From the NCBI GenBank assembly GCA_016192915.1, contig JACPTF010000010.1, positions 48,804 to 112,803 on the forward strand: a DNA stretch of 64,000 bases, in the 5' to 3' direction. The notes below the pieces were generated by a model. The model ran no database searches, was not told where the DNA came from, and worked only from the letters and a program-made list of their open reading frames with translations. The position numbers and the translations under genes are program-made. This DNA is from Candidatus Woesearchaeota archaeon. GTDB taxonomy: Archaea > Nanobdellota > Nanobdellia > Woesearchaeales > UBA10216. Position 1 is the stretch's first letter; every line of letters starts with the position of its first letter. This document shows, piece by piece, positions 41,953-64,000 of this stretch.

Positions 41953-42602
41953 AAGCACATGTTGCTGATGGCAATTTTATAAATCTTTGCCGCTGCTGTA
42001 AAAAGAGGGGGGCGCCGCAGCCGGGAATCTCATCCGGCTCTGCAGCCAGATTTTGAACCCGGATGAAGTTCGGGAAAACTTCACCAGTTTTTCAAACAGG
42101 CGCAATAACCTGATTCTGCCACCGCGGCAACTCCCATTTTACACTTACCATCAATTCTTGATATGCTTATCGCCTGGATTTACGGAAATTTTACGTCAAA
42201 GTGGTAATTCTTTCCGTCTATTCCGTGAATTTTTTGCATTTTCTGCAATTTGACGGAAATTTTTCCTTTGCCCCGCAATTTTTCTGGCTGTGTTGGGTGT
42301 CCAATAGGGTGCTTTCAAGTTAAGTGGCAAAGCCGACTTTGGTGCTGCGCACTTCCTTTCCCTCCCCTACGCTTAGCGTGGGGAGAGGAAAGCAACCCAA
42401 ATGCAGTTTGGGCAAAGTCGGCAACAAAAGACACCTAACTTGGCATTATCGTCCAATAGAAAAGATTAAATAGTAGAAGAAGGATTCAATAGTCAAGAAG
42501 TTCGGGAAAGCTGAAACATTAATCTGGTTCTGTCTTTTTTCTTTTTTTCGGGTACAGCTTCGGCGAAACTAATAAATACCCGGTTATCTGAGAGCAAAGG
42601 CA

Positions 42603-42937: not shown

Positions 42938-43693
42938 TCAGCCAGAAGCTGCTTCTGCCGGTCGCACACCAGCTTTTAAATTTGTAGTGTCGTAACCTGC
43001 TATCTCACAAGCCCTTACAAAGTAATTCAAATATGTCCTCTGGCGTGGGTCTTTGCTCATCAGCCCCTTGCCACTAGTGCTGCGGATGTTATCCAAGTTT
43101 CCACTTGCAAGGAGATCTTCTAGATCACCTTCAGTTAAGACTCCGCTGTGTTCAAGCATTCTTATAATCATGCCAGTACTTTGGTGAATAGCTTTTTGAT
43201 CATATTCTGGATGAGCCTCTTTGGCTGCTTGTTCTAGTGGCCCATACAAAAGCTCCTTGATAGGTTTGCCTTTTTCTCCCAAATACTTTTCTAAGCCAAA
43301 ATATGAGCGTGCGTTTTTAATCGGCGCATTTGGATCTACTAGTTCAACAATCTTGGACATACCCTTGGGCCATTCCCTTAAAATCTTTCTTACTTGAGCT
43401 TCGATGCCGTTTCCTCTCTTTGGTTCAAGGCCAACTTCCTCTGCTAACGCAACAGCTTCGCCCACGTCTACTGGTCTTCGGGTTACTCTTTCTAGGAGCC
43501 TCCTCCTGAACACTTCCGCAGCGTACTGGTCTATTGGAACATAGCCTCTAAACACACCGTAATCTATCACGCGCCCTCCGCCATACAACTGACTTTGCCC
43601 GCTCACGCTTGTGCCAGTAGGCTTTTGGCCGACTCCAGAAATATCTGTTTTAACTCTCCGACCATTTTCTTTTTGTTTAGACATTCCAGTCAA
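42938..43693 (-). CDS. Hypothetical protein (251 aa), third gene of the pyrH-downstream operon
   Basis: 4-nt overlap with the upstream 929-aa gene. No motifs recognized. Confidence 0.45.
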   Translation of the reverse strand: MTGMSKQKENGRRVKTDISGVGQKPTGTSVSGQSQLYGGGRVIDYGVFRGYVPIDQYAAEVFRRRLLERVTRRPVDVGEAVALAEEVGLEPKRGNGIEAQVRKILREWPKGMSKIVELVDPNAPIKNARSYFGLEKYLGEKGKPIKELLYGPLEQAAKEAHPEYDQKAIHQSTGMIIRMLEHSGVLTEGDLEDLLASGNLDNIRSTSGKGLMSKDPRQRTYLNYFVRACEIAGYDTTNLKAGVRPAEAASG

Positions 43694-46479
43694 TACCCCA
43701 ACCTAACTAATTCTCTACTCGGGAGTGCACCATTCTTTATAAATTTTGCTTTGGGATTGGATTTCACAGTTTCATGAGTTACTTCTGTCCCTGCATACTC
43801 AACTACTTTTTTCCGCTGCCCTGCCCTGTCGATTAAGGCATACCAGTCGCGCACCGTTCCTACCCGTTGCAAAAACCAATACAAACGATTATCGCTTCGC
43901 AGCCTTATGAACTCCGGATTCAGCACCCAAAGGTCGTCAATGGCTTCTGGCTTCATTGGCATGCTCAGTGAGCCTATACGAATAGTTACCGCGCGCTGAC
44001 CTGTCATATATCTTTCCATCACACTTAGTGCAGGCAAAACATCGTCATAAGAGACTGGCCTGCCGTAGCGCTGCGCAATGAGCGGATGCTTGCCAACCTC
44101 GTTAATTATTTCCTCTACGCTTGGGTCATGGTCGCGGCTTCCTGTTTGCTTCTCCTTTTCCAAGTCGCGGGTGTAATGCCTTACGATATTCATCATCAGG
44201 CGGCTAAACAGGATATCCGGCACTGCCGGCTCAGTACCTTTTTCACGTCCATTACCCTCCGAGTGGGTAAAGTGGCTATACCCCACAAAAGCGAGGCCAC
44301 TGATTTCAGGGCCGAGGCGCCTTGCCTCGCCATTGGGCAGGATTCTGGGAATAACCCCTGCCATGTAAAGGAAAACCCCGAGCTTGTAAGCCAGAATAAC
44401 CCTTTCCTTCGGCGAGTTTGCCAGCAAAGCATCCTTCTTTGAGAAAAACATGTAGCAAAACTCTTCAACCCCCTGCTGAAGCCCGTACGTTGACAGAGCC
44501 TCTTCAACTACTGCCTCAAGCCCGGTCCCTTTGAAAGCTTTGCTCGAGCCATACGAGCCAGCAGCCCATTCCTGCCTTCTGTCAGCAACTACCAGGCTTC
44601 CGCTTCTGTTAATGATTAGATGCAGGGCATAAGCCGGATTGGACCAATCCAAATGTTTCCTTTCGCTGTAGAACTCGAGCAGTGCAGAAACTGAGTCAAG
44701 TTTTTTTGGCCCTGTTCTGCCTATCAGGACAATGTTGTTGTGAGTTAATCTGTCCAGCCCTCTCCTTGCAAAATAGTCCCTTTGCTGTCCCTTTTGCTGC
44801 AGCAGATGGTTCAGTATTCTTAATTGCTCTTCCCTTCTGTCCGCCTGCTCAGCCTCCCTGTAACCTGGCAATGCGTAAAGCGCGTCTTCTATTGCTTCAA
44901 CTGCTAGCTGTGACGATTTCTCACCCCTCTGCCAAATGTCCTTTTCTGTAATCCTCCATGCTGCCACATAGGTTGGCTGTGTCCTATTGAACCAGTCTAG
45001 ACCCATATTTTCGCTATAGAATTCCAGAACTGCTTTAGGCGACTGCCCTTTTCTGATACCAGCTCTGCCTTTAGTGTCCACAAATCTTTGCATCAAGCCT
45101 GATAGTCCTGCTTTCTCAAAAAAGTCTGTCAGTGCCGTATGCAGTATTAGCTGATTAACTATTCTGACTTGCTCTTCACGGTTGCCCGAGTCTTCAGCCT
45201 GCCTGAAGCCTGGTAGTGTGCGCAGAACGTCTTGTATCGCTTCCAAGGCAAGCTGGACAGACTCCTCACCCCTTTGCCACTTATATCTTTCTCGAATCTT
45301 CCATCCGGGCACATAGGTTAGCTGTGTCCTGTCAAACCAGCCTAAGCCTTTCTGCTTGTTGTAGAATTCAAGGACAGCCCTAGGAGAGTATTCCTTTTTT
45401 ATCCCCTCTTTCCCAGTTACGTCCACAAAACTGCTCATTAACCAATTCAATCCGCGCGAGGAGAAATAGTCTGTTAGACTCGGTGTTTGCTCTATTAGTT
45501 CTGTAATAATTCTAACCTGCTCAGCTCGGTTGCTGGTTTCTTCTGCATCCCTGTAGCCAGGTTGGGTATATAGAACTTCCTGAATTGCGTTCAGAGCAGT
45601 CTGGACAGACGCTTGCCCACTTTTCCACTTAGGTATCTGAGGAATTTTGTGAAGCAGTTCAGGATTTATTGATTTCACAATCCCGCTTATCCCGTGGCTT
45701 CTTTCCAGAAGGGTCCTGAGGCCAAGCAGCTTTAACCTTTTTTCCAGGGAGGGCATTCCTGCACTGGAAGCTACTCTTAATATTCTTTGCACTATGGGCA
45801 TGCTGGTTTCATCTAAAGCAACCATAGGGCTAGGCAACCCACGCCCATGGCCCGCTATGCGTAGCCTTTGATACTCTTGAAACTCAGCGTAAAGCTTTCT
45901 CGCTTCTGGCGGAAGAGTGCCTAACCATCCAATGGTTTGACTAAGCATACTCCTATCCGAGATGTCCTCAGGGGTCAGGTCTGTGCTGCCTAAAATGCTG
46001 GCAAGATTACCAGTGTCACCAAGCGTGTCAACCAAGAACTGGAACTTTTCCTCTGGTAAGCTTTGCCTAATTATGCTCAAAAGCCTCTCTCCCTTAGCTT
46101 CAGCTGCCTTAAGCTCGACTTCTGTTCGCTCTTCAGGGGCGGCCAGAACTTGTTCAAGGGTAAATCCTGTGTCAGTCAAAGGAGCGTTTAACGACACAGG
46201 CTCCCATTCTCTTCCTAGACGGTAATTATCTAAAATTTCGCCTAATGTTTGCTGTAGCCGTTCAGCAGTCGGCAAGCCAAACCGCCTTCTGTTTTGACTT
46301 GCAACGTTGCGCGCTAATTGGGTAAGCCTTTCCCTTTCATTTGAATCATCAATAAGCAAGCCGTAATACTGGCCAATAAACTTTTCTTCCTCTTGCTCGG
46401 ATAACACTCCTGTTTCAGCAGGCAGTGTAGTAGATAGTGCAGTTCTGCTCGCAGCTTCCATGCTGTTATTTAGAAGCAT
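43690..46479 (-). CDS. Large hypothetical protein (929 aa) with three internal ~110-aa tandem repeats
   Basis: Each repeat follows W(K/Q)xG(Q/E)xSxQxALxAIxxVLxxxPGxRxAE..NRxEQVRI...AVLEFY...W..RTQxTYV. The repeats are also visible at the nucleotide level (~44.9-45.7 kb). Confidence 0.5.
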   Translation of the reverse strand: MLLNNSMEAASRTALSTTLPAETGVLSEQEEEKFIGQYYGLLIDDSNERERLTQLARNVASQNRRRFGLPTAERLQQTLGEILDNYRLGREWEPVSLNAPLTDTGFTLEQVLAAPEERTEVELKAAEAKGERLLSIIRQSLPEEKFQFLVDTLGDTGNLASILGSTDLTPEDISDRSMLSQTIGWLGTLPPEARKLYAEFQEYQRLRIAGHGRGLPSPMVALDETSMPIVQRILRVASSAGMPSLEKRLKLLGLRTLLERSHGISGIVKSINPELLHKIPQIPKWKSGQASVQTALNAIQEVLYTQPGYRDAEETSNRAEQVRIITELIEQTPSLTDYFSSRGLNWLMSSFVDVTGKEGIKKEYSPRAVLEFYNKQKGLGWFDRTQLTYVPGWKIRERYKWQRGEESVQLALEAIQDVLRTLPGFRQAEDSGNREEQVRIVNQLILHTALTDFFEKAGLSGLMQRFVDTKGRAGIRKGQSPKAVLEFYSENMGLDWFNRTQPTYVAAWRITEKDIWQRGEKSSQLAVEAIEDALYALPGYREAEQADRREEQLRILNHLLQQKGQQRDYFARRGLDRLTHNNIVLIGRTGPKKLDSVSALLEFYSERKHLDWSNPAYALHLIINRSGSLVVADRRQEWAAGSYGSSKAFKGTGLEAVVEEALSTYGLQQGVEEFCYMFFSKKDALLANSPKERVILAYKLGVFLYMAGVIPRILPNGEARRLGPEISGLAFVGYSHFTHSEGNGREKGTEPAVPDILFSRLMMNIVRHYTRDLEKEKQTGSRDHDPSVEEIINEVGKHPLIAQRYGRPVSYDDVLPALSVMERYMTGQRAVTIRIGSLSMPMKPEAIDDLWVLNPEFIRLRSDNRLYWFLQRVGTVRDWYALIDRAGQRKKVVEYAGTEVTHETVKSNPKAKFIKNGALPSRELVRLGY
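44880..45700 (-). repeat. Three tandem ~330-bp intragenic repeats inside the 929-aa gene (approximate span)
   Basis: Recurrent strings such as ...ctcacccct(c/t)tgccaaatgtcc.../...ctcacccctttgccacttatatc... and ...cacataggtt(g/a)gctgtgtcct... Confidence 0.5.
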
Positions 46480-46502: not shown

Positions 46503-48146
46503 CTAAGCAGCACCAACAGCTTTCATGGGAGCCTCCCCAACAGCTGCACTGGCGTAAGGGCTTATGTCGCGCCTGGTCTGGGCTTTTCCGTGATAAGCTA
46601 CTGCTTTTGGCCGTGCAAATTCTTGCTCCACAATGTCCCAGTAGCCTTCGTCAAAAAGTCCTCTCCGCGCCCAGAGCTGGTGGTAAGTGCGCTTTAGCAC
46701 AGGGTCTGCGGCTCTTGACTGGGGCCTTAAAACTTCAAGATTTTCTCCAGGCCCTAATAACACTTTTTCGCCATTGCGCACAAAACGAAACCTGCCAACC
46801 ACCCTTGGCCTCAGGTACTCCTTCAACTGGTGCACAACTAGCAGGCAATAGACCTGCTCTGGCGTAGTGCAGCCGAGCTTGTCTACAACGCCTTCATCAG
46901 AAAGAACCTTAGCCATCAGCTCTGCAGGCGAGAGCCCCCTGTGCTGCTCATAACGCGTCCTTGCCCTTCTGAAGACTGGAATAAGCTCCTCAGCGCACAA
47001 TTCGGTGTTCCTGAAAGAATCTCCAATAAAACCAATGGCCATGTAAAGGTCCTCCCTCTCTTTGAAGCGCCTCCTCCTACCCTTATAAGTCACTGGCACC
47101 TTTCCAAGCACAATAGCCTTAAGCAGCACGTAATCGTCATCTTCGTTTGGTTTGCCCATAATTATGCGGTGATTGAGCTGTATGCTGTGGAACGCTTCAA
47201 CGTCAGCAAGCCTGCCTGCGAGGTCTTGGTATTCTATCCAGCTTTTACCACCATTTTTTTCGCTATAAGTTACTGCACTCAGCAAGTCCTTTAACGAAAT
47301 GTCTCTGCCCTTCTCTATGTTAACCCTACGCAGCAGCTCGAGATTTTTAAGTGGCTCAATGAAAACCAAACCAGCTTCTGTTTCTACGGGCCTCTCACCA
47401 GCCAGGTACTGCCTCAGACGCTCAACAATATACCTGTCAAAGTTGTAGCGAGTTTCCATGAAGTACCTGAAAGATTCTACCGGCCGATACTTACTCATAA
47501 GCGGTTGGAACTTAAGCACTTGCCCGACCAAGTCTGTCCAGAGGGGGCCGCCAGCTCCAATCTCCCTGATATGCCTCTGCGAAACTCTCCACACCAGGCT
47601 GTAAAAGCGCGAATCCTCCCTTCTCTCAACTTCCTCACCACCCAAGCTGGCACTTGCAATGCTCATCAGCTTGAGTGCCTCTGAATTATTCAGGCGTATT
47701 TTTTCGCCGTTTACTATGCGCGGAAGCCAGCCGAGTAAGTAAAACACAACGTATAGCTCGTCGATGACCCCATTAGGAGTTACTTGCCTGTAAAGATTAT
47801 CATGCTGGCCGCCCTCGTGCAGCTGCGGCAGTCGCCAATTCAAATATTCGAATATTCTCCTGTGAGGCGCGCGCTTTTTATGGAACAGAGTGGCAGTAGT
47901 CGCAAGAAGTTGTAAAGAATCACTTTGCAGCCCTTTCTCCGGGTCAGTGAGCCTTATCGCACTTTCCACCACCTTATAAAGCGCAGAGCCCCTTCCTAAT
48001 TGTTCGTATTCGCTGACCAACCCCTCAACAACATCCTCAAGCGCCACAACTGCTGTTGGCGGATTCGGTTTTAAATATTTTGCCAGAAAGTCAGGACTAA
48101 GAAATAACAGTGCCCTTAAAACCCTTGCCATCCAAGAAGCTTTCAA
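46503..48146 (-). CDS. Large hypothetical protein (547 aa), first gene after pyrH
   Basis: 24-nt gap to the 929-aa gene. The 5' end overlaps the pyrH 3' end. No motifs recognized. Confidence 0.45.
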   Translation of the reverse strand: MKASWMARVLRALLFLSPDFLAKYLKPNPPTAVVALEDVVEGLVSEYEQLGRGSALYKVVESAIRLTDPEKGLQSDSLQLLATTATLFHKKRAPHRRIFEYLNWRLPQLHEGGQHDNLYRQVTPNGVIDELYVVFYLLGWLPRIVNGEKIRLNNSEALKLMSIASASLGGEEVERREDSRFYSLVWRVSQRHIREIGAGGPLWTDLVGQVLKFQPLMSKYRPVESFRYFMETRYNFDRYIVERLRQYLAGERPVETEAGLVFIEPLKNLELLRRVNIEKGRDISLKDLLSAVTYSEKNGGKSWIEYQDLAGRLADVEAFHSIQLNHRIIMGKPNEDDDYVLLKAIVLGKVPVTYKGRRRRFKEREDLYMAIGFIGDSFRNTELCAEELIPVFRRARTRYEQHRGLSPAELMAKVLSDEGVVDKLGCTTPEQVYCLLVVHQLKEYLRPRVVGRFRFVRNGEKVLLGPGENLEVLRPQSRAADPVLKRTYHQLWARRGLFDEGYWDIVEQEFARPKAVAYHGKAQTRRDISPYASAAVGEAPMKAVGAA

Positions 48147-49363: not shown

Positions 49364-49493
49364 GCGTCGGTGGTCTAACGGCATGACCTCAGCCTTCCAC
49401 ACAACCTTCTTTGGTGCGGCAAAGAAGCTTGACCAAGAAATCCACAGGTTGTAAAGAAAGCTGATGGTCCGGGTTCAATTCCCGGCCGACGCA
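49364..49493 (+). tRNA. tRNA-Gly(TCC) with a ~57-nt intron at or near the canonical position
   Basis: GCGTCGG-TG-GTC..GAC-C-TCAGC-CTTCCA-[intron with ACAACCT/AGGTTGT and cttctttg/caaagaag helices]-GCTGA-TGGT-CCGGG-TTCAATT-CCCGG-CCGACGC-A. Confidence 0.7.
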
Positions 49494-49499
49494 CTTCAA

Positions 49500-49877
49500 T
49501 TAAGGTTCCACTCTTTTTATTTCCAAGCCGTCAAAGTCCTTGTCGTAGGAGATAAATTCTGAGCAGTTGTTCACCAATGCTGTAGCGTAGTTAATCAAAT
49601 CAAACGTATTAAGATTGTATTTCTCAGCTCGCTTTAAGCTTTCAAAAAGCAGGTTTCTGTCCAACGGTACTATTAACGCATGAGTCTTAAGCAGCGCCTT
49701 AATGCAAACCCAGGCATACGTTTTGTCCTTTTTGATTTTGGCAATTCTGTACTGTGCTTCAACGAGGCAAAGGGTATTGGTAACGAAATCTTCGTACAAC
49801 ATACTCTGGCACTTATCCTTATCGGCGTTTTCCGTAAAGGCCTTTACTAGAACATTAGCATCTACAAACTTTGCCAT
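49500..49877 (-). CDS. vapC: PIN-domain protein (VapC-like toxin)
   Basis: MAKFVDANVLV...ISYDKDF with PIN acidic residues. 125 aa. Confidence 0.6.
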   Translation of the reverse strand: MAKFVDANVLVKAFTENADKDKCQSMLYEDFVTNTLCLVEAQYRIAKIKKDKTYAWVCIKALLKTHALIVPLDRNLLFESLKRAEKYNLNTFDLINYATALVNNCSEFISYDKDFDGLEIKRVEP

Positions 49878-49878
49878 T

Positions 49879-50106
49879 TTACCTTAATTGGTGCGTCATA
49901 GCAACTACTTCGGCTGTTGTATAAACCCTCTTTTGCCTGATTTTGTCTCCCATCCTGAAAACTTCCTCAAGGGATGGTATGGACTCACTTTCCAGCATCC
50001 TGTGAATGACCTCGTCATAGCTTTCCCTGGGATGCAGCTTCTTCACTTCAAGTTGTTTCCTGGTCTCTTCCTTTAACTGAATTGTTGTCAGCTTCAAACC
50101 AATCAC
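49879..50106 (-). CDS. Putative antitoxin, same family as 5567..5782
   Basis: ESYDEVIHRMLES resembles DSYEDVIRRMYEM. The gene sits 1 nt upstream of the PIN gene. Confidence 0.45.
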   Translation of the reverse strand: MIGLKLTTIQLKEETRKQLEVKKLHPRESYDEVIHRMLESESIPSLEEVFRMGDKIRQKRVYTTAEVVAMTHQLR

Positions 50107-50172: not shown

Positions 50173-52404
50173 TCACACCACTGGCTGTGCTATCCCGCCA
50201 ATGATGCTGGCCGCGATTATGTTGAACATCATAGTGATGGCGAACGCGACCAGGCCGTAGATGACCGTTCCCCGTATGAGGTTGGTGCCGAGCATATACC
50301 GCTCAGAGACCTTGTCAGAGCCGTTCTCAATCCCGTTTATCAGCAGGGTCAGGATTATCGTTACCTCAATTATGTAAAGCCCTATTATTACCTGGAAGAA
50401 ATAAGTCGGGACGCCGTTCCCGAAAAGATTAAGCAGCCCGGAAGGAATGCCAGCCTCCCCTCCGCCTCCGAATTCCGTAATTGCTGAAAGCTGCTCGCTC
50501 AGCCTGCTTATTATGGTTACTATCATGGACGTAATTCCAACGACTATGCCGGCTATTGCCGGAGCCAAAACACCAACCTGCTGCTTCATGTCGCTTATTA
50601 TGTCAGACATGAGGTCTTTCAGCCTTTCATCAACCCTGTGGATGTCCTTGATGTATTGGGAAACGTTTATCATCGCTGAAGAAGCCGCCATTGGGCCTTT
50701 CTTTGCGCTTTCGACAAGGACTTTCATAGAGCTTTCTATAAGCGGCGAGGGAAACTGCAGCAGAGTCCCTCTTTTTGAGTCGAATATTGCTGCCTCAACA
50801 GACATGCCCTGCCTCACAACCTTCTGATTGACAAGCTGGAAAAACTCTCCCGACCTTGTTCCGGCCATCATCTCGCTAACCTTGCCGATTGCCCGCTCCA
50901 GAGGCAGCCCGTCCCCAATCCTGTTGCCGAGCTGAAACAGGGCAGATGAGAATTCCTCTTCAAGGGCATTGGCATCCTCCCTCAGTTTGAGGACGTTCCT
51001 TGACCTTATCCTATGATACAGGCCGATTCCGACTCCGATGCCTACTGGTATGAAAAAGCTGAGCACTGTCGCCCCAAGCCCGTAAGGGCCGGTAAGGGAT
51101 GCTCCTGTCAGCTTGTACTCCAGAAACTTGAAGTTAAGGGTCTGGTCGAATGTGCGCTCATTAAGCAAGACATCCCGGGGCAGTATTGCGCCAAGCAGCA
51201 GCGGAACAATACCGATAAGGACCGCGAAAAACATCACGCCAAGCGTCAGCCAGATTGGGTTAATTGCTATAACCTTTTTCCCAAAACGGAGCAGGATGTT
51301 CCTGAGCTGCCGCACATCAGAATTAGCCTCAGAAATGTCCTGCTCTCCATAGCCGGTTGGCCTCTTTGAAAGCACCATCCTGCTCATGTAGAAAAGCACC
51401 AAAGGCAGGATTACGTTGTAAAGAAGGGCTATGTTAAGCGCTATCTTCATTGGCGGGGTATCGGACGTAAGGAAGCTCGCTGCCATTGGGAGTATGACCA
51501 GACCGAGCACAGGAAGAACAATACCGAGCATGTACAGCATGGTGACTGGGTTTTTGAGGTCGTGGCTGTAACGGAGCATCTTGTCATAGGTTTCCTGAAG
51601 CATCACGTCAAGGCTCTTGTCAATCATGTTCAGGCGCCTGTCATCAGACGGCTCATAAAGCGAGCCCTCTATGAGATGGAAGGCCTCAATGAACTCAAGG
51701 TTCCACTTCCTCCACGTTTCGAGATAGTTATCGACAGACTCCTTAATAGTATCAAGCTTGCCTGTCTCAACATCCCAAAGTATTTTTTTCAGGTCCAATG
51801 CCAAAGGAGGGGTTAGCCGGTCTGCTGCAAAGCGGACTGCGAGCTCAAGGTTTGAAGTATGGCGCATAAATGTGGCAACGTAAAAGATGCACTGCACCAT
51901 CTGGTTAGAGGCAGCAAGCCGGAAATTGTTCGCGAGAATCTCAGGCGCCTTTATCAGGGCAGCGTAAGTGAACAGCCCCATGCCAAGCGCGTAAGCCATA
52001 ACAATCATCGACTTTACAACGGCAAACCCGAAAAGCAGCCCAAGCAGGGTTACAACTCCGGCAGCGATGACTGCAAGGCTCATCGCCCCTGCCGGAGAGG
52101 ACTCAAGGTGGCAGAGCGAGATGTACTGCTGAATCTCGTCAGTCTGCTTCTGGTTCGGCTTGAGCCTTAAAATGCGCTCAGCCTTGCTGCAAAGCCGTTC
52201 GTAAACGCTTAAGTGGCGGGGAAGGTTCTCCCTCTTGAAATCAATATAATTGGATGAAAGTAGCGGTTCCAGCAGTTTTGAATTTGCCGTTTCAGCCCTG
52301 GCAGGGGGCTTGCCCTTCCTGCCGAAACCGGAAATTGCCTCCTCAAGCCTGCCAGAATACTTTTTCGCCAGCGGCTCATCCGCCGATGTTGTTGGAGTTT
52401 TCAT
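50173..52404 (-). CDS. Polytopic membrane protein, FlaJ/TadC-like (type II/IV secretion platform, T2SF-like)
   Basis: 743 aa. Cytoplasmic N-domain, then two blocks of TM helices separated by a soluble domain. Immediately downstream of the secretion ATPase. Confidence 0.5.
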   Translation of the reverse strand: MKTPTTSADEPLAKKYSGRLEEAISGFGRKGKPPARAETANSKLLEPLLSSNYIDFKRENLPRHLSVYERLCSKAERILRLKPNQKQTDEIQQYISLCHLESSPAGAMSLAVIAAGVVTLLGLLFGFAVVKSMIVMAYALGMGLFTYAALIKAPEILANNFRLAASNQMVQCIFYVATFMRHTSNLELAVRFAADRLTPPLALDLKKILWDVETGKLDTIKESVDNYLETWRKWNLEFIEAFHLIEGSLYEPSDDRRLNMIDKSLDVMLQETYDKMLRYSHDLKNPVTMLYMLGIVLPVLGLVILPMAASFLTSDTPPMKIALNIALLYNVILPLVLFYMSRMVLSKRPTGYGEQDISEANSDVRQLRNILLRFGKKVIAINPIWLTLGVMFFAVLIGIVPLLLGAILPRDVLLNERTFDQTLNFKFLEYKLTGASLTGPYGLGATVLSFFIPVGIGVGIGLYHRIRSRNVLKLREDANALEEEFSSALFQLGNRIGDGLPLERAIGKVSEMMAGTRSGEFFQLVNQKVVRQGMSVEAAIFDSKRGTLLQFPSPLIESSMKVLVESAKKGPMAASSAMINVSQYIKDIHRVDERLKDLMSDIISDMKQQVGVLAPAIAGIVVGITSMIVTIISRLSEQLSAITEFGGGGEAGIPSGLLNLFGNGVPTYFFQVIIGLYIIEVTIILTLLINGIENGSDKVSERYMLGTNLIRGTVIYGLVAFAITMMFNIIAASIIGGIAQPVV

Positions 52405-52410
52405 GAAAAA

Positions 52411-55400
52411 TTAAACGACCTCAACCTCTTTTCTCCTGATGGCCTTTTTCAGCCACTCGCTCCACTCGAAGAGGATGCGCTTGTTGTCGTATGAGCCCAG
52501 CTCATCCTTTACCTCCTCAGCCAACTTGTGGAACTCGTCATTCGCCTGCACGACAAAAGGCGCTTCAAGCAGCTCATTCTGGCCTGTCTTATCAGCAGCA
52601 TCCACCACGGCCTCCTTAATCTGGGCACGGAGCAGGACGTTGTCCCAGACAGCGTCCCAGCTTCCGGCCCAGTCCTTCACATTCGCCGCAATGGACTTCA
52701 GGACATCACTTTCGCCATTAAGCAAGTCAATGGTTGGCTCGAGCTGGTCTGACTTTGAATCGTACTTCATCAGGTCCTTGAAGCCCTTCTCCAGCAGCGG
52801 GTCATTCTCCCAGTATTTTCCCACCTCAGTAATCTGGGTTAACCTGCGCCAGCGGTGAAGCCCGTCAGGGGTCCTAATCGGATTAGCAACAACAATGACA
52901 TCGGTTGCCTTGAATGATGTCCTGGGCACCCTTAAGTCGTTAACGACCCTGTCGAAAACACCGTAAGGGCTGTCGCCGTGAATGGTGCCTGCAACGACAT
53001 TGGCAAGAGCTCCCACTCTCATGGCCTCGTAAAGTGCAGCAGCCTCAACCGACCTCACCTCACCGATGATTAGGCAGCTGTCGCCCATTCTAAGAGTTGA
53101 CCTTATGCCCTCGTCAGCGGAAACTTCTGTAGTGCCCTTTGTCAGTGCCGAAGCAACTTTCATTGACTGGATGTTGTAGTTAAGCTGCTTCAGTGCTGCA
53201 ACAGGTAATTCTAGAGTGTTGTGAGCTACAATATTATCGCAGACAAAGCTCTCGCATTCAGGTACAGATAGGTCGTATACCCAGCCATCATGTTCTTGCA
53301 TTGAAATTTCCCTGACTTCATCCCAAAATATGTCAGATTGTGCCAGAATTGAAAGGTTCTCAGACAACTCACATGGCAATTGATTTGTTTGCAGTATGCT
53401 AACAAGCCTGGTTTGCCCTATGTCGTTATCTCTAATCACATAGTCATGAAAGTTAAATTTTGGAATCATATCCCATAAATCCTCTTTTGTTCCAAGTGAT
53501 AGCGGGATTATGTCTGTTGTATCGTGCGTGCTTGTTTTGCTGCACAATAAGTCAACTTTCTGGTTTTTATAATGCTGCAAGAAGCCAATATTATCCCTGA
53601 AATTCTTCCATGATTTCAATGAACTTATGCCCGCATTGTAGGTGCCATCACTTCTTTTCTTGCCAATCCTGAAAACTATGTCATATGCGGATAAAAGAAA
53701 TTGTATGTCTTTTAGCAAGGCGGCTGAGGCCATCGGAATTACAATCTCCTTATCCGCAGCGCAGCCATCACCAGTGAAAATACCGTTAAGCACAAAGGCA
53801 ATCTGCTCCCTGGATAATTGATAAATCCATGCGGGCAGACGCTTGGTGTAGGAATTACCTTTCAGCTCAAATAGCTCTGCCATGCAAGCTTTGAGGGTTT
53901 TAGAATTAAGCTGGAGTGAAAATCCGTCAGAATGCATCTTTACCGGTATTCCGAATTTCTTCCCTACACTATGCACCACTGCTCTATCCTCTTCGTCAAC
54001 AGCAGAGATGATTACTGACATTTGGTCGTAGCAACCATCCGCTATCCATAACCCCACAAATGTAAGAAACTCCTTATCAAGCGACATTTTGGCAGGCAAA
54101 GAAAAAGTCGAACGCCTGCCCACCTTAAAAAAGATTTTTCCATCACCAATCCGATAACCTGCAGAGATTAGTTTCCCCACAATCTTGCCTGGAAGCATCC
54201 CTTTCCTTATCCAATATTGAATAACCTGTTTTCCATAGCCTTGTTTCTCTCCAAGCTTTTTGATATCTGCCCTATGCTGCTGTGCAAAATTCATGACTGC
54301 CTCTCCAAAGATATAGCTTTCTTCAAGCCCTAAAATCTTGGGAAGTAAATCGATTTCTGGCAGCTCCTTGTTGGCAAGTTCAATATGTCTGGGCACAGAA
54401 ATGTGGCTGCCTGGTTGAAGCTCCTTTACCTTGGCTTCTTCTATTTGGCCAGTTTCACCTACAGTAAACAGAGAATGGTCGCCTGTAACCCTAATTGTCC
54501 TGCCTGTTCTTGTCTTCACAGTGAATAGCGGCTTGTTTACCTTATGTCTTATGAAATTACTGACTCTGCTAAGAACAATCTTGCCTTGCTTATCCATGGC
54601 GTATATCTCAATTTTTTCTGGATTTCCGGCCACTTCGTGGTCTGAAAGGTTGTAATAGCTTCCGTGCTTGGTTATATTGCTATCCACAAGTTCTCCTATG
54701 GTTGTTCGCTCATAGGTGCCATTTCGCCTAATAATGAGTTCACTATCGCCAGCAACGCTATCCTCTAGTGAGATCATACGATATTTCCTCATTATCTCAA
54801 CCATGACGGAGCCGAGCACTGATGTTTTTCCGGCAGACCTTGTGCCGGCAACGAGCATTGTCCTGGAGCCGTCAATGAGGAAGCTGAGAAGCCCTGCTGA
54901 AAGGGGAGTCATCATCCTCTGCTTTATGAAGAGGGGAAAGGTCCACGGCTTGTCCCTGTGCCGACGGAAAGCATAAGCAAGGCCGTTTGGGTTCAGGGGC
55001 TCACCGACGACGGCTACCCTTGCCCTGGCTCCCGGAACAAGCAGCTCTGTGTCCAGTATTGGATTGGCCTCGTCCAAAGGCCTTCCGGACATCAGCCTCA
55101 GCTTGGTAGCCCAGGAATCAGCATCGCTCGAAGTGGGAATAATGTTTGTCATGCAATCATCATAATCCTGGTGCACGATAAAGAGCGGCTGCCTTCCCAT
55201 GGGGCTGTTGGCTGTTATGTCCTGGATTTTATCGTCCTTGAGCAAGACCTCAACAAGGCCAAATCCGATAGTATACCTGACAAGCACTTCAGCGAGCTCC
55301 TCAACCTCCTTAGTGCGGAGCTTGAGCTGCTTCTGGTCAGCGAGCTCCTCAATTAAATCGCTGCCTACGTTAAAGAACACCTGCCTGACCCTTTCAGGGT

Positions 55401-56235
55401 CAATGAACTCGCTTCTTGTTGGCTTATGCTCTGAGATCACCCTTTTGGCCAAATCGAGAAGCTCATACTTGTCTTCGGTAAGCTTGAATTCCGGAGGCAC
55501 AACATGGTAAAGGTACTGGACCGTAGAGGGAAGCTTGAACAAGGTAATGTCAGCCCCCTCAACAGTGTAGCTGTCAATTTCCTCGCCATCCTGTGGGAAG
55601 GCAGCCATGAGCCTGGTGAACATGAAATCAGGCTTTGCAAGAGGGTTAAAGACAAAATGATAAATGCCCCTGTTGCCTTCCTTGTAATCCTGCAGGTGAG
55701 GCTTTGCCTTCAGCATCAGCTCGGTTTTTTCAAGCGCGTTAAGAAGCGACTCAACAAGCTGAAGGTATCTGTCAGCTCCGGCAGCCTGCTGGGCAGCCCT
55801 TTCACTGGCAACCTTTTCCTCACGGTGCATCCTGCGAAGCTCAACATAAGCTGCAACAGGGTCATTCCTTAGCTTGTTGTAAACTATGTTCCTTATCTCA
55901 TAACTGCGCCTCTCCCCACTTGGGCCGGTAAAAACGCCGCCGAGCGAGGAAAGCGTAAAAAGAACCTGCTGCTTGATTATCTGATTGCGAAGCTTGCCTA
56001 TCTCTGCAAGCATCCTGACCTGCCCATAATCGTACTCGTAATCCCTTTTTTGCGCAAAGACAACCCGGGTAATGCTTGGGTTTTCAACCAGCTTGTCAAT
56101 AACGGCAGACATGCAAACAGTGCTGTCCTCGATTGAAGGGAAAAAGGGGAAGGCCTCTGCATCTATTCTTAAGACTAGGTCCTCGCCCTCCTTGTACGTC
56201 TCGTAACTAAAATAGTCCCCTCTTTTTTCAGGCAT
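52411..56235 (-). CDS. FlaI/VirB11/PilB-family secretion ATPase interrupted by a 514-aa intein
   Basis: Walker A AGTRSAGKTS. The host motif ISLED|TLELPV is split by an insert that begins with S, ends with HN, and carries LAGLIDADG blocks (LTFVGLWIADGCYD, AFVLNGIFTGDGCA). The C-terminal extein has the ATPase His/Asp boxes. Confidence 0.85.
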   Translation of the reverse strand: MPEKRGDYFSYETYKEGEDLVLRIDAEAFPFFPSIEDSTVCMSAVIDKLVENPSITRVVFAQKRDYEYDYGQVRMLAEIGKLRNQIIKQQVLFTLSSLGGVFTGPSGERRSYEIRNIVYNKLRNDPVAAYVELRRMHREEKVASERAAQQAAGADRYLQLVESLLNALEKTELMLKAKPHLQDYKEGNRGIYHFVFNPLAKPDFMFTRLMAAFPQDGEEIDSYTVEGADITLFKLPSTVQYLYHVVPPEFKLTEDKYELLDLAKRVISEHKPTRSEFIDPERVRQVFFNVGSDLIEELADQKQLKLRTKEVEELAEVLVRYTIGFGLVEVLLKDDKIQDITANSPMGRQPLFIVHQDYDDCMTNIIPTSSDADSWATKLRLMSGRPLDEANPILDTELLVPGARARVAVVGEPLNPNGLAYAFRRHRDKPWTFPLFIKQRMMTPLSAGLLSFLIDGSRTMLVAGTRSAGKTSVLGSVMVEIMRKYRMISLEDSVAGDSELIIRRNGTYERTTIGELVDSNITKHGSYYNLSDHEVAGNPEKIEIYAMDKQGKIVLSRVSNFIRHKVNKPLFTVKTRTGRTIRVTGDHSLFTVGETGQIEEAKVKELQPGSHISVPRHIELANKELPEIDLLPKILGLEESYIFGEAVMNFAQQHRADIKKLGEKQGYGKQVIQYWIRKGMLPGKIVGKLISAGYRIGDGKIFFKVGRRSTFSLPAKMSLDKEFLTFVGLWIADGCYDQMSVIISAVDEEDRAVVHSVGKKFGIPVKMHSDGFSLQLNSKTLKACMAELFELKGNSYTKRLPAWIYQLSREQIAFVLNGIFTGDGCAADKEIVIPMASAALLKDIQFLLSAYDIVFRIGKKRSDGTYNAGISSLKSWKNFRDNIGFLQHYKNQKVDLLCSKTSTHDTTDIIPLSLGTKEDLWDMIPKFNFHDYVIRDNDIGQTRLVSILQTNQLPCELSENLSILAQSDIFWDEVREISMQEHDGWVYDLSVPECESFVCDNIVAHNTLELPVAALKQLNYNIQSMKVASALTKGTTEVSADEGIRSTLRMGDSCLIIGEVRSVEAAALYEAMRVGALANVVAGTIHGDSPYGVFDRVVNDLRVPRTSFKATDVIVVANPIRTPDGLHRWRRLTQITEVGKYWENDPLLEKGFKDLMKYDSKSDQLEPTIDLLNGESDVLKSIAANVKDWAGSWDAVWDNVLLRAQIKEAVVDAADKTGQNELLEAPFVVQANDEFHKLAEEVKDELGSYDNKRILFEWSEWLKKAIRRKEVEVV
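53218..54759 (-). mobile_element. Intein (with LAGLIDADG homing-endonuclease domain) within the FlaI-like ATPase gene
   Basis: N-terminal Ser, C-terminal VAHN followed by +1 Thr. Two dodecapeptide motifs. Removing it restores the contiguous P-loop ATPase motif ...RMISLEDTLELPV... Confidence 0.75.
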
Positions 56236-56360
56236 TTGTTAACCTCGTTTCCCACGTCGCTTTCAGGCGACGGGGCCCAATCGTGCCCTGCACGATTTGG
56301 GTTTGATTGACCTTTCCGCATCGCCTATTGCGATGGGACCAGTCGAGCGTATCTCGACTT
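56236..56360 (-). promoter_or_regulatory. Cluster of four consecutive stem-loops in the divergent intergenic region upstream of the ATPase gene
   Basis: CGTCGC-tttcag-GCGACG; CCCAATCGTGC-cct-GCACGATTTGGG; CCGCATCGC-ctatt-GCGATGGG; CCAGTCGAG-cgtat-CTCGACTTGG. Confidence 0.35.
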
Positions 56361-56430
56361 GGTTTGCGAAAAAGGTCATAGCAAACCTCTTTACAAAGCT
56401 ATTTATATAACTGCCGCTATTTATAGTTTT

Positions 56431-56874
56431 ATGGATACGGGCATGTTCCCAAGCGGTAAGAAGAACACGCAAGACGCATCTGTTTCTGCATCACTAAGCC
56501 AGGCCGTTGCTGAAGCCGAGCGGCGCCTGAGAACAATTGAGGAACGATTTTCCAACCTTGAGCGAAGAAGCCAGGTAACAGAGGAAAACATGCTCACCAG
56601 TGACAGAAAGATAAAATCGGAGATAAGGCTGACAAGCAGCGATGTTTCAGACGTAAAAGCCCAGATTGCTGAGCTCACAGAAAAGATAAAAGAGGTAATA
56701 AGGGAGCTTCAGGGCTTCGCGAGGGCTGAAGATGTTGACGTCATAAGGAAGTACCTCAACCTTATTGAACCATTGGGTTTTGTCACGCAAAATGAAGTGG
56801 ACCGCATTGTCAGGCATGCAGTTGAAGAGGCATTGGGCCAGCAGCTCAGCGAGCAGGGCACAGGAAAAGAGTAA
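56431..56874 (+). CDS. Coiled-coil protein (start trimmed to MDTGMF)
   Basis: Heptad-rich sequence (RLRTIEERFSNLERRSQ..., AQIAELTEKIKEVIREL). Confidence 0.4.
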   Translation: MDTGMFPSGKKNTQDASVSASLSQAVAEAERRLRTIEERFSNLERRSQVTEENMLTSDRKIKSEIRLTSSDVSDVKAQIAELTEKIKEVIRELQGFARAEDVDVIRKYLNLIEPLGFVTQNEVDRIVRHAVEEALGQQLSEQGTGKE

Positions 56875-56947
56875 TAGCCCTTCGCCATTCAAAAGCTTTA
56901 AAAACAATTATCGCAAATTAGCACTATTAAACGAAAAAGTGGTGGCA

Positions 56948-57847
56948 ATGGGGCTTTTTAATTTTGGCAAGAAAAAGGAGGAGCCGATTCAGGGGCCGAG
57001 AGTGCCTGTTGATGATGTGGCAAGGATGCGCAGGCAGGGCTTGTCCAATAACCAGATAGTCCAGGCGCTTCAGCGCAACGGCTTCCAGAGCCACCAGATA
57101 TTTGACGCGTTCAACCAGGCAGACTTGAGAGTGCCTTCGCCTCTTCAAGGGATGCAGCAGGGCATGCAGCCAGGAATGCAGGGAATGCCGCCAAGAGCAG
57201 CGCAGAGACAGCAATTCATGCAGCCTGGCCCACAAGGCCCACAAGGAATGGCCGGAACAGACCATGGCCAGGAAAGCCCGGCAGATTTGGGAATGCCGCC
57301 AGTGCCTCCGGGACTGGACGAAATGGGCAATGAGGCGTCAATTACAGGGCCGCAGACCGCTGACGAATTCTCAGGGTTGCCCGGGCTTGGCGAGGACTTT
57401 GGGCAGGGCGGGCAGCAGCCCGGTCAGGAACCAGTGCAATTCCCGCAACAGGGCGAAAGCTTCCCATCACAACCGGCGAGCTACGGCAGCTATGACGCCT
57501 CAGCAAAGATTGAGGAGATAAGCGAGGCAATTATAGAGGAAAAATGGCAGGACCTTATGAAGGACTTTAATAAGATCGTGGAATGGAAAAGCTCAATGGA
57601 GCAGAGAATGGCAGCGATTGAGCAGCGGCTTTCTGACCTTAAAGCAGGCTTTGACAACCTGCAGCGAAGCGTGGTTGACAAGGTAAGCGACTACGACAAG
57701 AGCGTGAAAGACGTCAACACAGAGATGAAGGCATTAGAGCAGGTTTTCCAGAAAATCATACCAACCATGACGGAAAACGTAAACGAGCTCTCAAGAATAA
57801 CCAAAGTTATGAAGTCTCCGCAGCAGCAAAAGAAAAAACAAGCTTAA
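56948..57847 (+). CDS. Gln/Pro/Gly-rich protein with a small N-terminal helical domain and a C-terminal coiled coil
   Basis: N-terminus MGLFNFGKKKEEP..DDVARMRRQGLSNNQIVQALQRNGF. Repeats GMQQGMQPGMQGMPP. C-terminal heptads. Confidence 0.4.
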   Translation: MGLFNFGKKKEEPIQGPRVPVDDVARMRRQGLSNNQIVQALQRNGFQSHQIFDAFNQADLRVPSPLQGMQQGMQPGMQGMPPRAAQRQQFMQPGPQGPQGMAGTDHGQESPADLGMPPVPPGLDEMGNEASITGPQTADEFSGLPGLGEDFGQGGQQPGQEPVQFPQQGESFPSQPASYGSYDASAKIEEISEAIIEEKWQDLMKDFNKIVEWKSSMEQRMAAIEQRLSDLKAGFDNLQRSVVDKVSDYDKSVKDVNTEMKALEQVFQKIIPTMTENVNELSRITKVMKSPQQQKKKQA

Positions 57848-57877
57848 TAAATATTTTAAATATTTCTGTTTCAATTT

Positions 57878-58447
57878 TTAGTGGCCTGCCATCCCGCCAA
57901 TCGTGCCGCCTGCGCCAGTCATAAGGGCGAGCGTCATTGCCCCCACTCCCAGGACAAGGAAGAGCCCAAGAAGCTTCGGGTTGGTAAGAACCCCAATGAA
58001 AGGCCGCTGCGTCTGTTCAACAGCAACATTCTCGCCGGTTTGCTCGTCTATCACGAATTTCACAAGCTCCTGCGGCCGCTGCGTCCATGCAACAACCAGA
58101 ATGACTATGAGAGCAACAAAAACATACCAGACAACACCTGTGCCCTTGCCGCCAAACGTATTAACTACTGTTTCAGGCTTGACGCCTACAAAGCCCGAAA
58201 GCAGGAGGATGAAGAAAAATAGTGCAGCAATAACAATAACCCAGGGTGCCATTGCTGTTATTATGTTAGTGGCTCCCCCTGTGAGGACAACAACCGCAGT
58301 TATGACAAAAGCAAACAGCGCGTGCAGCCCCTTGTTCTTCAGCAGGTTGGTAACTTCCAGCCCGCCGTAAACTATGAGAAAGACGAGAATCCAGACAAAT
58401 ATGTCAGTAAAGCCCTTCAAAAGGCCCAAGTCAAGGATTGTTGCCAT
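57878..58447 (-). CDS. Polytopic membrane protein, paralogue 3 of a tandem triplet
   Basis: About 190 aa with 4-5 TM helices. More divergent than the other two. Confidence 0.45.
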   Translation of the reverse strand: MATILDLGLLKGFTDIFVWILVFLIVYGGLEVTNLLKNKGLHALFAFVITAVVVLTGGATNIITAMAPWVIVIAALFFFILLLSGFVGVKPETVVNTFGGKGTGVVWYVFVALIVILVVAWTQRPQELVKFVIDEQTGENVAVEQTQRPFIGVLTNPKLLGLFLVLGVGAMTLALMTGAGGTIGGMAGH

Positions 58448-58468
58448 TTTTTGCCTGCCATCACGTGG

Positions 58469-59065
58469 CTACCTGCCACCGGTAAGCTTCCTCCAAGCGG
58501 CGCCTGCATCCTCAAGCGGGTTATCAGCTGTAATCAGAAAGATTACCAAGGCAAATACCAGCACTATTACCAGCAGCACCTGAATGTCCGGATTTGACAG
58601 GAACGAGAGACCGCCAAAGGTTTCCCACCAGCCTGCCGAAAGCCCGAAAATGTAAATTATTGCGGCCACGCTCAGGAAAGCGAAGAATCCGCCCATTGGA
58701 ACGCCCTCCTTGTTCGGGCGGAAGATGCCAACCAGGATAAGGGCAGCGACAATAATTACAATGACCAGTGAAACATTGGGCAGCGCTGTGTTAATGATAT
58801 TTACGACATCCTGGCCTGGCGGATAGGTGCCAAGGACGTGCGGGACAACAACGAGAAGGGCCATCACAATCGCAACCAGGGTGTGTATGCCTTTCTTATC
58901 CCCGAGGACCTTTGTGGTCCTTATTACGGTGAATACTACGGCAAATATCAGTATGAAAGGCAACACAGCGTCAAGCAGCCCAAACTGCTCAAGCTGGACA
59001 AGAAAGTCAGGCACAGTCCTCACGCCTGAGAACGCCTGAAGCACAACAGGCAACACCGGCAACAT
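58469..59065 (-). CDS. Polytopic membrane protein, paralogue 2
   Basis: Shared N-terminal block ...LDAVLPFILIFAVVFTVIRTTKVLG.. versus ..FDVVLPFLLIFTIVFAMLEKTRVFG.. in paralogue 1. Confidence 0.5.
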   Translation of the reverse strand: MLPVLPVVLQAFSGVRTVPDFLVQLEQFGLLDAVLPFILIFAVVFTVIRTTKVLGDKKGIHTLVAIVMALLVVVPHVLGTYPPGQDVVNIINTALPNVSLVIVIIVAALILVGIFRPNKEGVPMGGFFAFLSVAAIIYIFGLSAGWWETFGGLSFLSNPDIQVLLVIVLVFALVIFLITADNPLEDAGAAWRKLTGGR

Positions 59066-59138
59066 TTTTTTACACCATCGCTCTTTTTTGTTCTCTAACT
59101 GTTTTAGTTCTTTTTATATCTTGCTATATCCTCCCTTT

Positions 59139-59732
59139 TTACGGGTGAGCAGCGCCGCCCCCTCCAGCTGCTCCAGAGGGCTTTTCACCCTTGGTTATGA
59201 ACACAATAACTCCAATAACCAAACCCATGAGGATGATAGTTGGAACTGAAACATTAGTTGAAAACTGGCCCAGCCAGTCAAATATCCACTCAAGCCACGT
59301 CTTGTTATCGCTTGTCTTGATGGCGTTGAGGAATATGCCTGCAAGGCCCAAAAACATTATTATGATGAAAGCGCCCTGGGTCCATCCCTTAAGCGCAAAG
59401 CCCTCAGCACCGGCCTGAGGGTGGAAAGAGCCGACAAGCATCAGGAAGAAGACTGAAGCAAAAAGCAGTATGACCACATTTGCAGATATCTGGGTCAAGG
59501 CGTTAACCACCTTTGCAGAGGCAATGGCAAAAAAGGCAATCGCGAAAGAAGCCATGGCGTTAAGGTTCTTCTTGGTGTACTTCTTTCCATCAACCTCCTC
59601 AGTGCCAAACACCCTTGTCTTCTCAAGCATTGCAAAGACAATTGTGAATATGAGAAGGAAAGGAAGGACAACGTCAAAAACCCCAATCTTGTCCATGAAG
59701 TCCAGCGCGTTCCTGAAATCAGATTGCACCAT
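59139..59732 (-). CDS. Polytopic membrane protein, paralogue 1
   Basis: See paralogue 2. Gly-rich C-terminal tail. Confidence 0.5.
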   Translation of the reverse strand: MVQSDFRNALDFMDKIGVFDVVLPFLLIFTIVFAMLEKTRVFGTEEVDGKKYTKKNLNAMASFAIAFFAIASAKVVNALTQISANVVILLFASVFFLMLVGSFHPQAGAEGFALKGWTQGAFIIIMFLGLAGIFLNAIKTSDNKTWLEWIFDWLGQFSTNVSVPTIILMGLVIGVIVFITKGEKPSGAAGGGGAAHP

Positions 59733-59959: not shown

Positions 59960-60421
59960 ATGACAATCGCGGGATTTACATTCACAAAGCTGCTTGCCGA
60001 GAAAAAGGCAGCGGCAAGGGGCAACATCAACATAAACACAAACATGTCCTTTATCAGTGCCGAAGAGATAGACTTCGTGATGGGAACAAACAAGCAGAAG
60101 GGCTTAAAGGTCAGCTTTGACTACAGGAACACCTACGTTCCAGACATAGGCACGCTCATAATAAACGGTGAAATACTGTATCTTTCAGACCAGAAAAGGC
60201 ATGATGAGCTCATGAAGTCGTGGAAAAAAGACAAGCGGTTCCCTGATGATGTAACGGCACACCTTTACGACATGATATCGGTGAGGTCCACAGTTGAGGC
60301 AATAAGCCTTTCAAGCACAGTAGGGCTCCCACCGCCAGTCCCAGTTCCAAGGTTCACAGCAGGCAAAAAGCAAGAACAGCAGGAAAGCCAGCAGCAGAAG
60401 GAACAGAAAGGAAGGAAGTAA
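59960..60421 (+). CDS. Hypothetical protein (start trimmed to MTIAGF)
   Basis: ORF with a Gln/Glu/Lys-rich C-terminal tail. Confidence 0.3.
   Translation: MTIAGFTFTKLLAEKKAAARGNININTNMSFISAEEIDFVMGTNKQKGLKVSFDYRNTYVPDIGTLIINGEILYLSDQKRHDELMKSWKKDKRFPDDVTAHLYDMISVRSTVEAISLSSTVGLPPPVPVPRFTAGKKQEQQESQQQKEQKGRK

Positions 60422-60486: not shown

Positions 60487-64000
<3,514 letters not shown>

Follow-up and report, generated by a model that had tools for sequence, protein, structure and literature searches.

The 64,000-nucleotide window analysed here, from contig JACPTF010000010.1 of a Candidatus Woesearchaeota archaeon (assembly GCA_016192915.1), carries at positions 50173 to 59732 a cluster of seven genes that probably forms the biogenesis module of a type IV pilus-like (type IV filament) machine of the DPANN lineage. 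At its centre, on the minus strand, lie the 1274-residue precursor of a FlaI/TadA/GspE-type ATPase (B, 52411..56235) and, downstream with 6 nt between the ATPase stop and the next start, a 743-residue putative platform protein (A, 50173..52404), a highly diverged member of the T2SSF superfamily. Two plus-strand genes are transcribed divergently from the ATPase: C (56431..56874) encodes a 147-residue cytoplasmic coiled-coil protein, and D (56948..57847) a 299-residue cytoplasmic protein with a UBA-like domain and a coiled coil. Beyond them, again on the minus strand, stands a tandem triad of membrane protein genes, in order of transcription G (59139..59732, 197 residues), F (58469..59065, 198 residues) and E (57878..58447, 189 residues), each with five predicted transmembrane segments. 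All seven open reading frames (ORFs) listed in an earlier, preliminary description of this DNA are present where it placed them. G is 100% identical to the Candidatus Woesearchaeota protein HYY73_03415, and the named homologues of A come nearly all from Woesearchaeota or Nanoarchaeia.

Pfam scans of the 1274-residue ATPase frame returned T2SSE, Intein_splicing (residues 505-1006, 9.7e-26) and LAGLIDADG_3 (1.4e-9). The junctions ISLED/SVAGDSELI...IVAHN/TLELP (slashes mark the splice points) delimit a 514-residue intein and leave a spliced ATPase of 760 residues. The N-extein (54760..56235, minus strand; residues 1-492) comprises an N-terminal extension of ~290 residues and the Walker A motif; the intein (53218..54759, minus strand), with its LAGLIDADG homing-endonuclease domain, sits in the Asp box; and the C-extein (52411..53217, minus strand; residues 1007-1274) contributes Walker B, the His box and a C-terminal extension. 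In silico removal of the intein rebuilds the Asp box (ISLED-TLEL) beside Walker A (GTRSAGKTS), a Walker B-like motif (LIIGEVR) and the His box (GTIHG). The spliced protein also matches T2SSE (1.4e-13), and its nearest solved relatives are GspE of A. fulgidus (afGspE, PDB 2OAP, 6e-29, with an alignment that begins at residue 306 of the spliced ATPase), CpaF (1e-19) and FlaI (2e-14), with VirB11 far behind these three among the PDB matches. Against the equivalog models of NCBIfam the spliced ATPase falls below every cut-off (FlaI, 101.7 bits vs 550; TadA, 92.5 bits vs 373). The preliminary description had proposed an intein-interrupted FlaI/VirB11-family ATPase here, and the profile matches, solved relatives and intact motifs agree with it; a PilB/FlaI/TadA-family ATPase, as type IV filament machinery requires, is present at the locus.

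The best match of the ATPase among NCBIfam secretion-ATPase models is to FlaI (4.2e-29), and the coiled-coil proteins beside it are reminiscent of FlaX and FlaC/D/E, both of which would suit a reduced archaellum locus serving rotary motility. Such a locus is extremely improbable, given the distance of the FlaI score from its equivalog cut-off, an afGspE-type rather than FlaI-type nearest solved relative, and the lack of FlaH/KaiC, FlaF/G or archaellin matches when the locus ORFs were scanned with Pfam and NCBIfam; the scan of the whole window was likewise negative for archaellins. Seven components (FlaI, FlaH, FlaJ, FlaF, FlaG, archaellins and FlaC/D/E) occur in all archaellum-bearing archaea (PMC4858521). 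The present locus has neither a FlaI orthologue nor FlaH, FlaF/FlaG or archaellins, and a standard archaellum was rejected on the same grounds; the absence of FlaH/FlaG/FlaF-like genes had already been noted in the preliminary description. What the archaellum motor (FlaI/ArlI, FlaJ/ArlJ, FlaH and FlaX or FlaC/D/E) does share with the locus is an ATPase and a platform of the same superfamilies together with cytoplasmic coiled-coil partners.

The 514-residue insert is a standard intein with every feature expected of the homing-endonuclease class: it starts with Ser (S493), contains the block B motif TGDH, ends in VAHN and is followed by Thr at +1. Among PDB sequences it matches PI-PkoII (2.5e-20), as well as the CDC21, TFIIB, DnaB and PolII inteins, and weakly the MJ0781 intein (PDB 2JMZ, 3.9e-4). 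MJ0781, labelled hypothetical in the PDB, is a protein that we take to be KlbA, an intein-bearing ATPase of the VirB11/FlaI superfamily. The two inteins thus resemble each other in residing within an ATPase of this superfamily and in a weak sequence similarity, whereas that of the window differs in being full-length, with a LAGLIDADG endonuclease, a Ser start and two insertion sites among its orthologues. In a set of 75 full-length orthologues of the ATPase, 63 are intein-free (725-799 residues) and 12 carry an intein of ~510 residues, located in the Asp box in nine of the 12 and beside Walker B (...HN/TEAxAL) in the other three; the orthologues of L002, L003 and L008 (L numbers denote individual loci of the comparative sample described below) were compared with the window ATPase for the position of the site. 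This patchy spread over two sites is the typical behaviour of homing inteins. Another intein-bearing ATPase is encoded 4 kb from B, a double AAA protein of the CDC48/VCP type (60496-64000, plus strand; CDC48_N, CDC48_2 and AAA matches). It runs past the end of the window, and its intein likewise includes a LAGLIDADG domain (Intein_splicing, 9.6e-24). The CDC48/VCP-type gene also neighbours the locus in L006, L007, L010 and L052.

Protein A has ~9 hydrophobic segments, and its family profiles retrieved nothing meaningful from the PDB sequences. The lack of a direct family match (see below) required indirect tests, for which we used fold comparison and transitive homology. In fold comparisons of an AlphaFold model of A (predicted local distance difference test score, pLDDT, 76.5; predicted template-modelling score, pTM, 0.72), four of the top five matches were to the GspF-type helical bundle, and Foldseek aligned the model locally with domains of EpsF, PilC and OutF (probability 1.0; template-modelling scores of 0.65-0.71). 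Clustered at 90%, the homologues of A number more than 3181, and a search with the family profile gave 1277 clusters at 50% identity. When A and 31 full-length relatives at ~25% identity, all previously found by this profile at E <= 1e-96, were scanned with Pfam, T2SSF was matched by 19 of the 32 sequences; one relative, P0299, scored 40.5 bits (gathering score 25.2) and spanned model positions 4-124 of 125. Because both of these independent indirect tests are positive, A is accepted as a predicted diverged platform protein of the GspF/PilC/TadC/FlaJ superfamily. The proposal that the 743-residue protein is FlaJ/TadC-like would have fallen had it been unlike T2SF/FlaJ; it stands, by way of relatives and fold, and a T2SSF-family platform lies beside the ATPase as in type IV filament systems. 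Since a platform protein is able to escape Pfam entirely, censuses of DPANN pili are probably undercounts.

The genes of the triad are true paralogues as judged by sequence comparison, in keeping with the preliminary description: pairwise BLASTP gives 7e-12 for G-F, 1e-4 for G-E and 1e-3 for F-E, and the three proteins (189-198 residues) recover one another in iterated profile searches. G, for which 853 homologues were collected, begins with an N-terminal amphipathic helix that is followed by a first transmembrane helix with a conserved G-x-x-D-x-x-L-P-F; the residues invariant in its family around this helix are G17, D20, P24, F25, E37 and K38. The G-x-x-D element followed by a hydrophobic helix is common to E, F and G. 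In an Aenigmatarchaeota locus, a Sec-type signal peptide precedes the same core in two longer triad paralogues; together with a basic loop after the first helix, it suggests that the N-terminus lies outside the cell. The preliminary description had called for structure prediction of the triplet; G was modelled (pLDDT 73, pTM 0.41), and no related fold was found. Two assignments of the triad to known pilus functions were considered and rejected. As prepilin peptidases, E, F and G share a single common Asp and lack a second motif of the GxGD type; as processed pilins, they have five helices, a charged -2 position that is not conserved, and an amphipathic helix ahead of the first transmembrane segment.

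A third assignment, in which the triad would be VirB2/TrbC-type pilins and the ATPase a VirB11 analogue, would make the locus a conjugation-like or Ced/Ted-like DNA transfer system. This lead arose from a precomputed PF18895 tag on one G homologue and from weak matches: a G homologue scores below threshold against T4SS_pilin (24.1 bits vs a cut-off of 26.6); among G-type members, three of 31 match T4SS_pilin and three of 31 match TrbC at E <= 0.1, and the ATPase weakly matches the VirB11/TrbB models of NCBIfam. Against these stand the E-type, F-type and distant members, none of which (0/70) matches either pilin family, and the G model, which has no VirB2-like fold; VirB2/TrbC pilins were rejected for the triad accordingly. 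The motor fits no better, the ATPase being much nearer to afGspE, CpaF and FlaI than to VirB11, its membrane partner having the fold of GspF/PilC rather than of VirB6, and a VirB4/HerA-type ATPase being absent from the locus in Pfam scans. A type IV secretion or Ced/Ted system is therefore disfavoured, and we judge DNA transfer of this kind very improbable.

The divergent coiled-coil protein and Gln/Pro-rich protein of the preliminary description (C and D) are both real, with likely starts downstream of those of the longest ORFs. Both have a basic GLF-x-KKK-like N-terminus and consist largely of coiled coil. C returned only coiled-coil noise from Pfam and ends in a conserved motif with the consensus KEDVxVLEKYINLWxPxxFVT. 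In D, whose family was recovered in 46 loci, an MGLFxxGKKK N-terminus precedes a UBA-like domain of three helices, which a Q/P/G-rich linker joins to a C-terminal coiled coil. The N-terminal domain matches DUF7626 in 17 of 35 members, and also UBA_3, UBA_DHX29 and Raf1_HTH, and the coiled-coil part finds only generic coiled coils in the PDB; D also weakly matches the coiled-coil family DUF7310 (2.9e-4, below cut-off). C and D were tried as paralogues of each other and the idea was dropped, their similarity being weak (BLASTP 0.001 over 26 residues; hhalign probability 46%). In Pfam and NCBIfam scans none of C, D, E, F and G matched a family with a known pilus role.

To compare gene order, we used a sample of 86 loci, made up of 80 genome loci fetched via the platform and several metagenome loci, whose ORFs were searched with iterated profiles. 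The platform is encoded in at least 591 species-level genomes. The ATPase lies directly upstream of it in 83 of the 86 loci; the triad, always as a tandem triplet, lies upstream in 40 of the ~55 loci with enough flank; and the 86 loci yielded 52 C-type and 44 D-type genes, on the opposite strand between the triad and the ATPase. The paralogues follow the order G, F, E in all 39 Woesearchaeota loci (39/39), which indicates that the triplication is old and its copies are not interchangeable. Where the sequence was long enough, a reciprocal metagenome scan that started from G always recovered the tandem triplet (43 of 43 loci), and D, C, the ATPase and A lay downstream of it in ten of the 15 loci with enough flank. 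Two distant loci extend the pattern. L086, from Aenigmatarchaeota, repeats the layout of the window: after the triad come D and C, which lie on the opposite strand, and then the ATPase and the platform. In L005, whose lineage is not assigned, the platform is ~26% identical and every gene lies on one strand, in the order three triad-like genes, a C-like gene, a D-like gene, the ATPase, a CARDB protein, a SpoIIM-like protein and the platform. The synteny comparison thus shows a seven-gene module conserved across Woesearchaeota loci and present also in L086 and L005, and it supports the earlier idea that the coiled-coil and paralogous membrane proteins may be novel components of the machine.

The same data can be read more sparingly, with the ATPase and platform as a minimal two-gene pilus motor and C, D, E, F and G as mere conserved neighbours. 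About 15 Woesearchaeota platform loci with enough flank have no triad nearby, five of the 15 triad loci have no motor within 6.5 kb or more, and C to G have neither a sequence nor a fold link to a known pilus component. We nevertheless find this account improbable, as co-location persists at ~25% identity, in another phylum (Aenigmatarchaeota) and in the one-strand arrangement of L005, and the paralogue order is fixed wherever it was scored in Woesearchaeota.

Several observations weigh against assigning the locus to a type IV filament machine. The preliminary description reported no class-III pilin and no prepilin peptidase, and our scans of the 64-kb window gave the same picture: no ORF near the locus combines a K/R-G/A/S motif with a pilin-type hydrophobic N-terminus and a non-membrane body, and no obvious prepilin-peptidase candidate appears by size and transmembrane pattern, the criterion applied to the polytopic ORFs in place of a profile scan. 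The only other window proteins with at least three transmembrane segments (26023-27750, 27754-28728 and 37488-38858) we take to be SecD/SecF- and MATE-like, not FlaK/PibD-type, from their size and the spacing of their hydrophobic segments. Few class-III-like ORFs lie within 10 kb of the Woesearchaeota loci on either side, and the presumed pilins of L005, L086 and L020 match no Pfam pilin family. On the motor side, A has no direct match in Pfam or NCBIfam, and the internal duplication expected in the GspF/PilC/TadC/FlaJ family is only weakly detectable in it (hhalign E 0.002, probability 15%). Identity of the platform across the whole group is, moreover, ~50%, a level of conservation unusual for pilus machinery, whose genes tend to evolve fast; this conservation makes a more housekeeping role for the locus possible. 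Finally, the physical contact of C, D, E, F and G with the motor is putative and drawn from synteny.

The two distant loci bear on the question of the pilins. In L086 the platform is followed by at least six small proteins with class-III-like N-termini (e.g., MNKKG/MTTAMLVILG, MRKG/MSAGALALMGG and KKG/MLAIDMIIVL), and in L005 the module is followed by several small proteins with N-terminal hydrophobic helices, at least two of which begin with MKKG and a hydrophobic helix; in both loci the pilin call is based on N-terminal pattern and position. The lack of Pfam matches for these small proteins agrees with a published description of DPANN pilins as sequence "dark matter," unrecognisable by sequence (PMC6393860). 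A census of archaeal pili places the genes of major pilins, as a rule, outside the operons of ATPase and TadC, and it records nanoarchaeal ATPases for which no pilins could be recognised (PMC4858521). Based on the runs of small proteins in L005 and L086 and on this precedent, we attribute the missing pilins to gene location and not to a pilin-free machine: they are most likely encoded elsewhere in the genome, as is usual in archaea, and the absence of pilin genes from the locus is in itself unsurprising. Of the two alternatives left by the preliminary description, filament subunits encoded elsewhere is thus the one we favour, and the non-canonical machine is not needed.

A machine that works without pilins, a secretion, DNA-uptake or membrane-remodelling device with the triad and coiled-coil proteins as its working parts, would account for the lack of pilins in the window and their rarity within 10 kb of ~80 Woesearchaeota loci, for a platform identity of ~50% across at least 591 species that is atypical of pilus genes, and for accessory genes that stay beside the motor more faithfully than any pilin. 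Such a device appears unlikely: the module shares its gene string with class-III-like small proteins in L005 and L086, and the separation of pilins from the motor operon is normal in archaea. To our knowledge, moreover, every ATPase/platform pair of the type IV filament superfamily acts on pilin-like substrates.

Among the Woesearchaeota loci, a clear class-III-signal protein was seen only at L020 (1950-2699, minus strand) and L022 (2211-2972, minus strand). In both it has ~250 residues, begins MKRG/QISLFVITGILILILLG... and is encoded just upstream of G on the opposite strand.

For the type IV pilus-like machine that we favour, we propose the following course of assembly. Removal of the intein would yield an ATPase with intact Asp box, Walker A, Walker B and His boxes. 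By analogy with related motors, the spliced ATPase would dock as a hexamer on the cytoplasmic helical bundles of the platform, and ATP would drive the lifting of processed pilins from the membrane into the growing filament. The pilins and the prepilin peptidase would be supplied from elsewhere in the genome, as related loci suggest. On the cytoplasmic side, C and D may form a scaffold or regulate the machine, a role proposed from synteny that would parallel that of coiled-coil partners of other archaeal filament motors. G, F and E, again from their synteny, could form a non-redundant hetero-oligomeric membrane sub-complex around the platform or anchoring it, in the manner of a collar or anchor. 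In a host-dependent DPANN cell, the filament would most plausibly serve attachment to a host or surface. As a tentative extension that we hold possible without expecting it, the G-F-E triad and the C/D pair may be structural subunits of a distinct, DPANN-specific type IV filament subtype, near-universal and unusually conserved in Woesearchaeota, with a role beyond adhesion (e.g., host holding or penetration, or uptake of DNA or lipid).

The locus is readily compared with archaeal adhesive pili (Aap and Ups of Sulfolobales, Epd of Methanococcus and PilB/PilC of Haloferax; PMC4858521), in which a FlaI/TadA-type ATPase is directly followed by a TadC/FlaJ-type platform, pilin genes often lie elsewhere, and lineage-specific accessory proteins include coiled-coil proteins. 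The machine of the window departs from them in a 743-residue platform too diverged for Pfam, in an ATPase with a ~290-residue extension and an intein, and in a fixed five-helix triad and two specific coiled-coil proteins that accompany the motor. The Halobacterial subclade 4F pilus, which we set beside it from its description, has an intracellular coiled-coil partner, arCOG07564, and ATPases of that subclade are known from nanoarchaea in which pilins escaped identification (PMC4858521). The weak DUF7310 match of D may hint at a kinship with arCOG07564. The bacterial Tad/Flp motor (CpaF/TadA with TadB/TadC) and afGspE (2OAP) provide the closest solved ATPases and the same ATPase-plus-platform logic; unlike Tad/Flp, the locus encodes a single platform with two fused repeats in place of the separate TadB and TadC, has no TadZ, RcpA or Flp homologues, and belongs to a cell with an archaeal envelope.

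A pilus-type motor in DPANN archaea and an intein in such an ATPase are already known. In literature searches we found no description of the fixed accessory set, of its DPANN spread or of the conservation of the platform. The question of how DPANN archaea, tiny symbionts that are for the most part uncultured, attach to their hosts and draw on them gives the module its interest. Its platform is encoded in at least 591 species-level genomes and is far better conserved than is common for pilus machinery, and the motor has five partner proteins that match no described family. If these partners belong to the machine, the type IV filament superfamily would gain a new architecture, and the triad, C and D would be concrete targets in cultivable DPANN.

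Between the ATPase and C lies an AT-rich block (56396..56430, ATAAAACTATAAATAG..TTATATAAATAG) with two TATA-like boxes that is kept in seven close relatives, from which we infer a putative bidirectional promoter for the divergent C and ATPase genes. A GC-rich structured insert of ~140 nt (56236..56395, minus strand) separates this TATA-like block from the ATPase start. Its predicted RNA fold has five hairpins and an energy of -67.1 kcal/mol (z -6.76; equalled by 0 of 200 shuffles). The insert was seen only in the window and in the closest relative, L006 (95% identical), whose diverged copy (z -8.8) has at least one compensatory stem change; L007-L011 lack it and have only ~56 nt at that place. 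It has no Rfam match and no second copy in the window; possible identities are a structured 5' leader, a small RNA and a decayed mobile element.

The flanks of the module hold several further genes. On the triad side, a 153-residue protein with a Q/E/K-rich tail and no family match (59960-60421, plus strand) is divergent from the triad; found only in six close relatives, it probably has nothing to do with the module. Directly after the platform gene come a PIN-domain protein gene (49500-49877, minus strand; 4.7e-13) and a small upstream ORF (49879-50106, minus strand), which together look like a toxin-antitoxin pair; the PIN gene occupies the same spot in L006, L009 and L011. Farther on, two soluble proteins of 929 and 547 residues (43690-46479 and 46503-48146, minus strand) have no Pfam match and repeated modules in common; both match one ORF in L006, the closest relative and the only one in which they were found, and a 251-residue protein without a match (42938-43693, minus strand) is encoded beside them. 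A pair of N-terminally anchored proteins of ~210 residues (34946-35581 and 34242-34898, minus strand) is not class-III-like and has no Pfam match. Homologues of this pair follow the platform gene directly in L001 and at a distance of 8-10 kb in L006 and L008, a loose linkage.

Three tRNA features complete the survey of the window. Rfam tRNA matches at 41645-41760 (minus strand) and 49364-49493 (plus strand) are 116 and 130 nt long vs a 71-position model, and we read them as carrying archaeal-type introns. ARAGORN places a 93-nt tRNA-Phe at 42036-42128 (minus strand), so that the tools disagree around 41.6-42.1 kb. The 3' end of a tRNA-Cys gene (37 nt, 13393-13429) is repeated 260 nt downstream (13653-13689) at 95% identity, the kind of duplication left by an element integrated into a tRNA gene.

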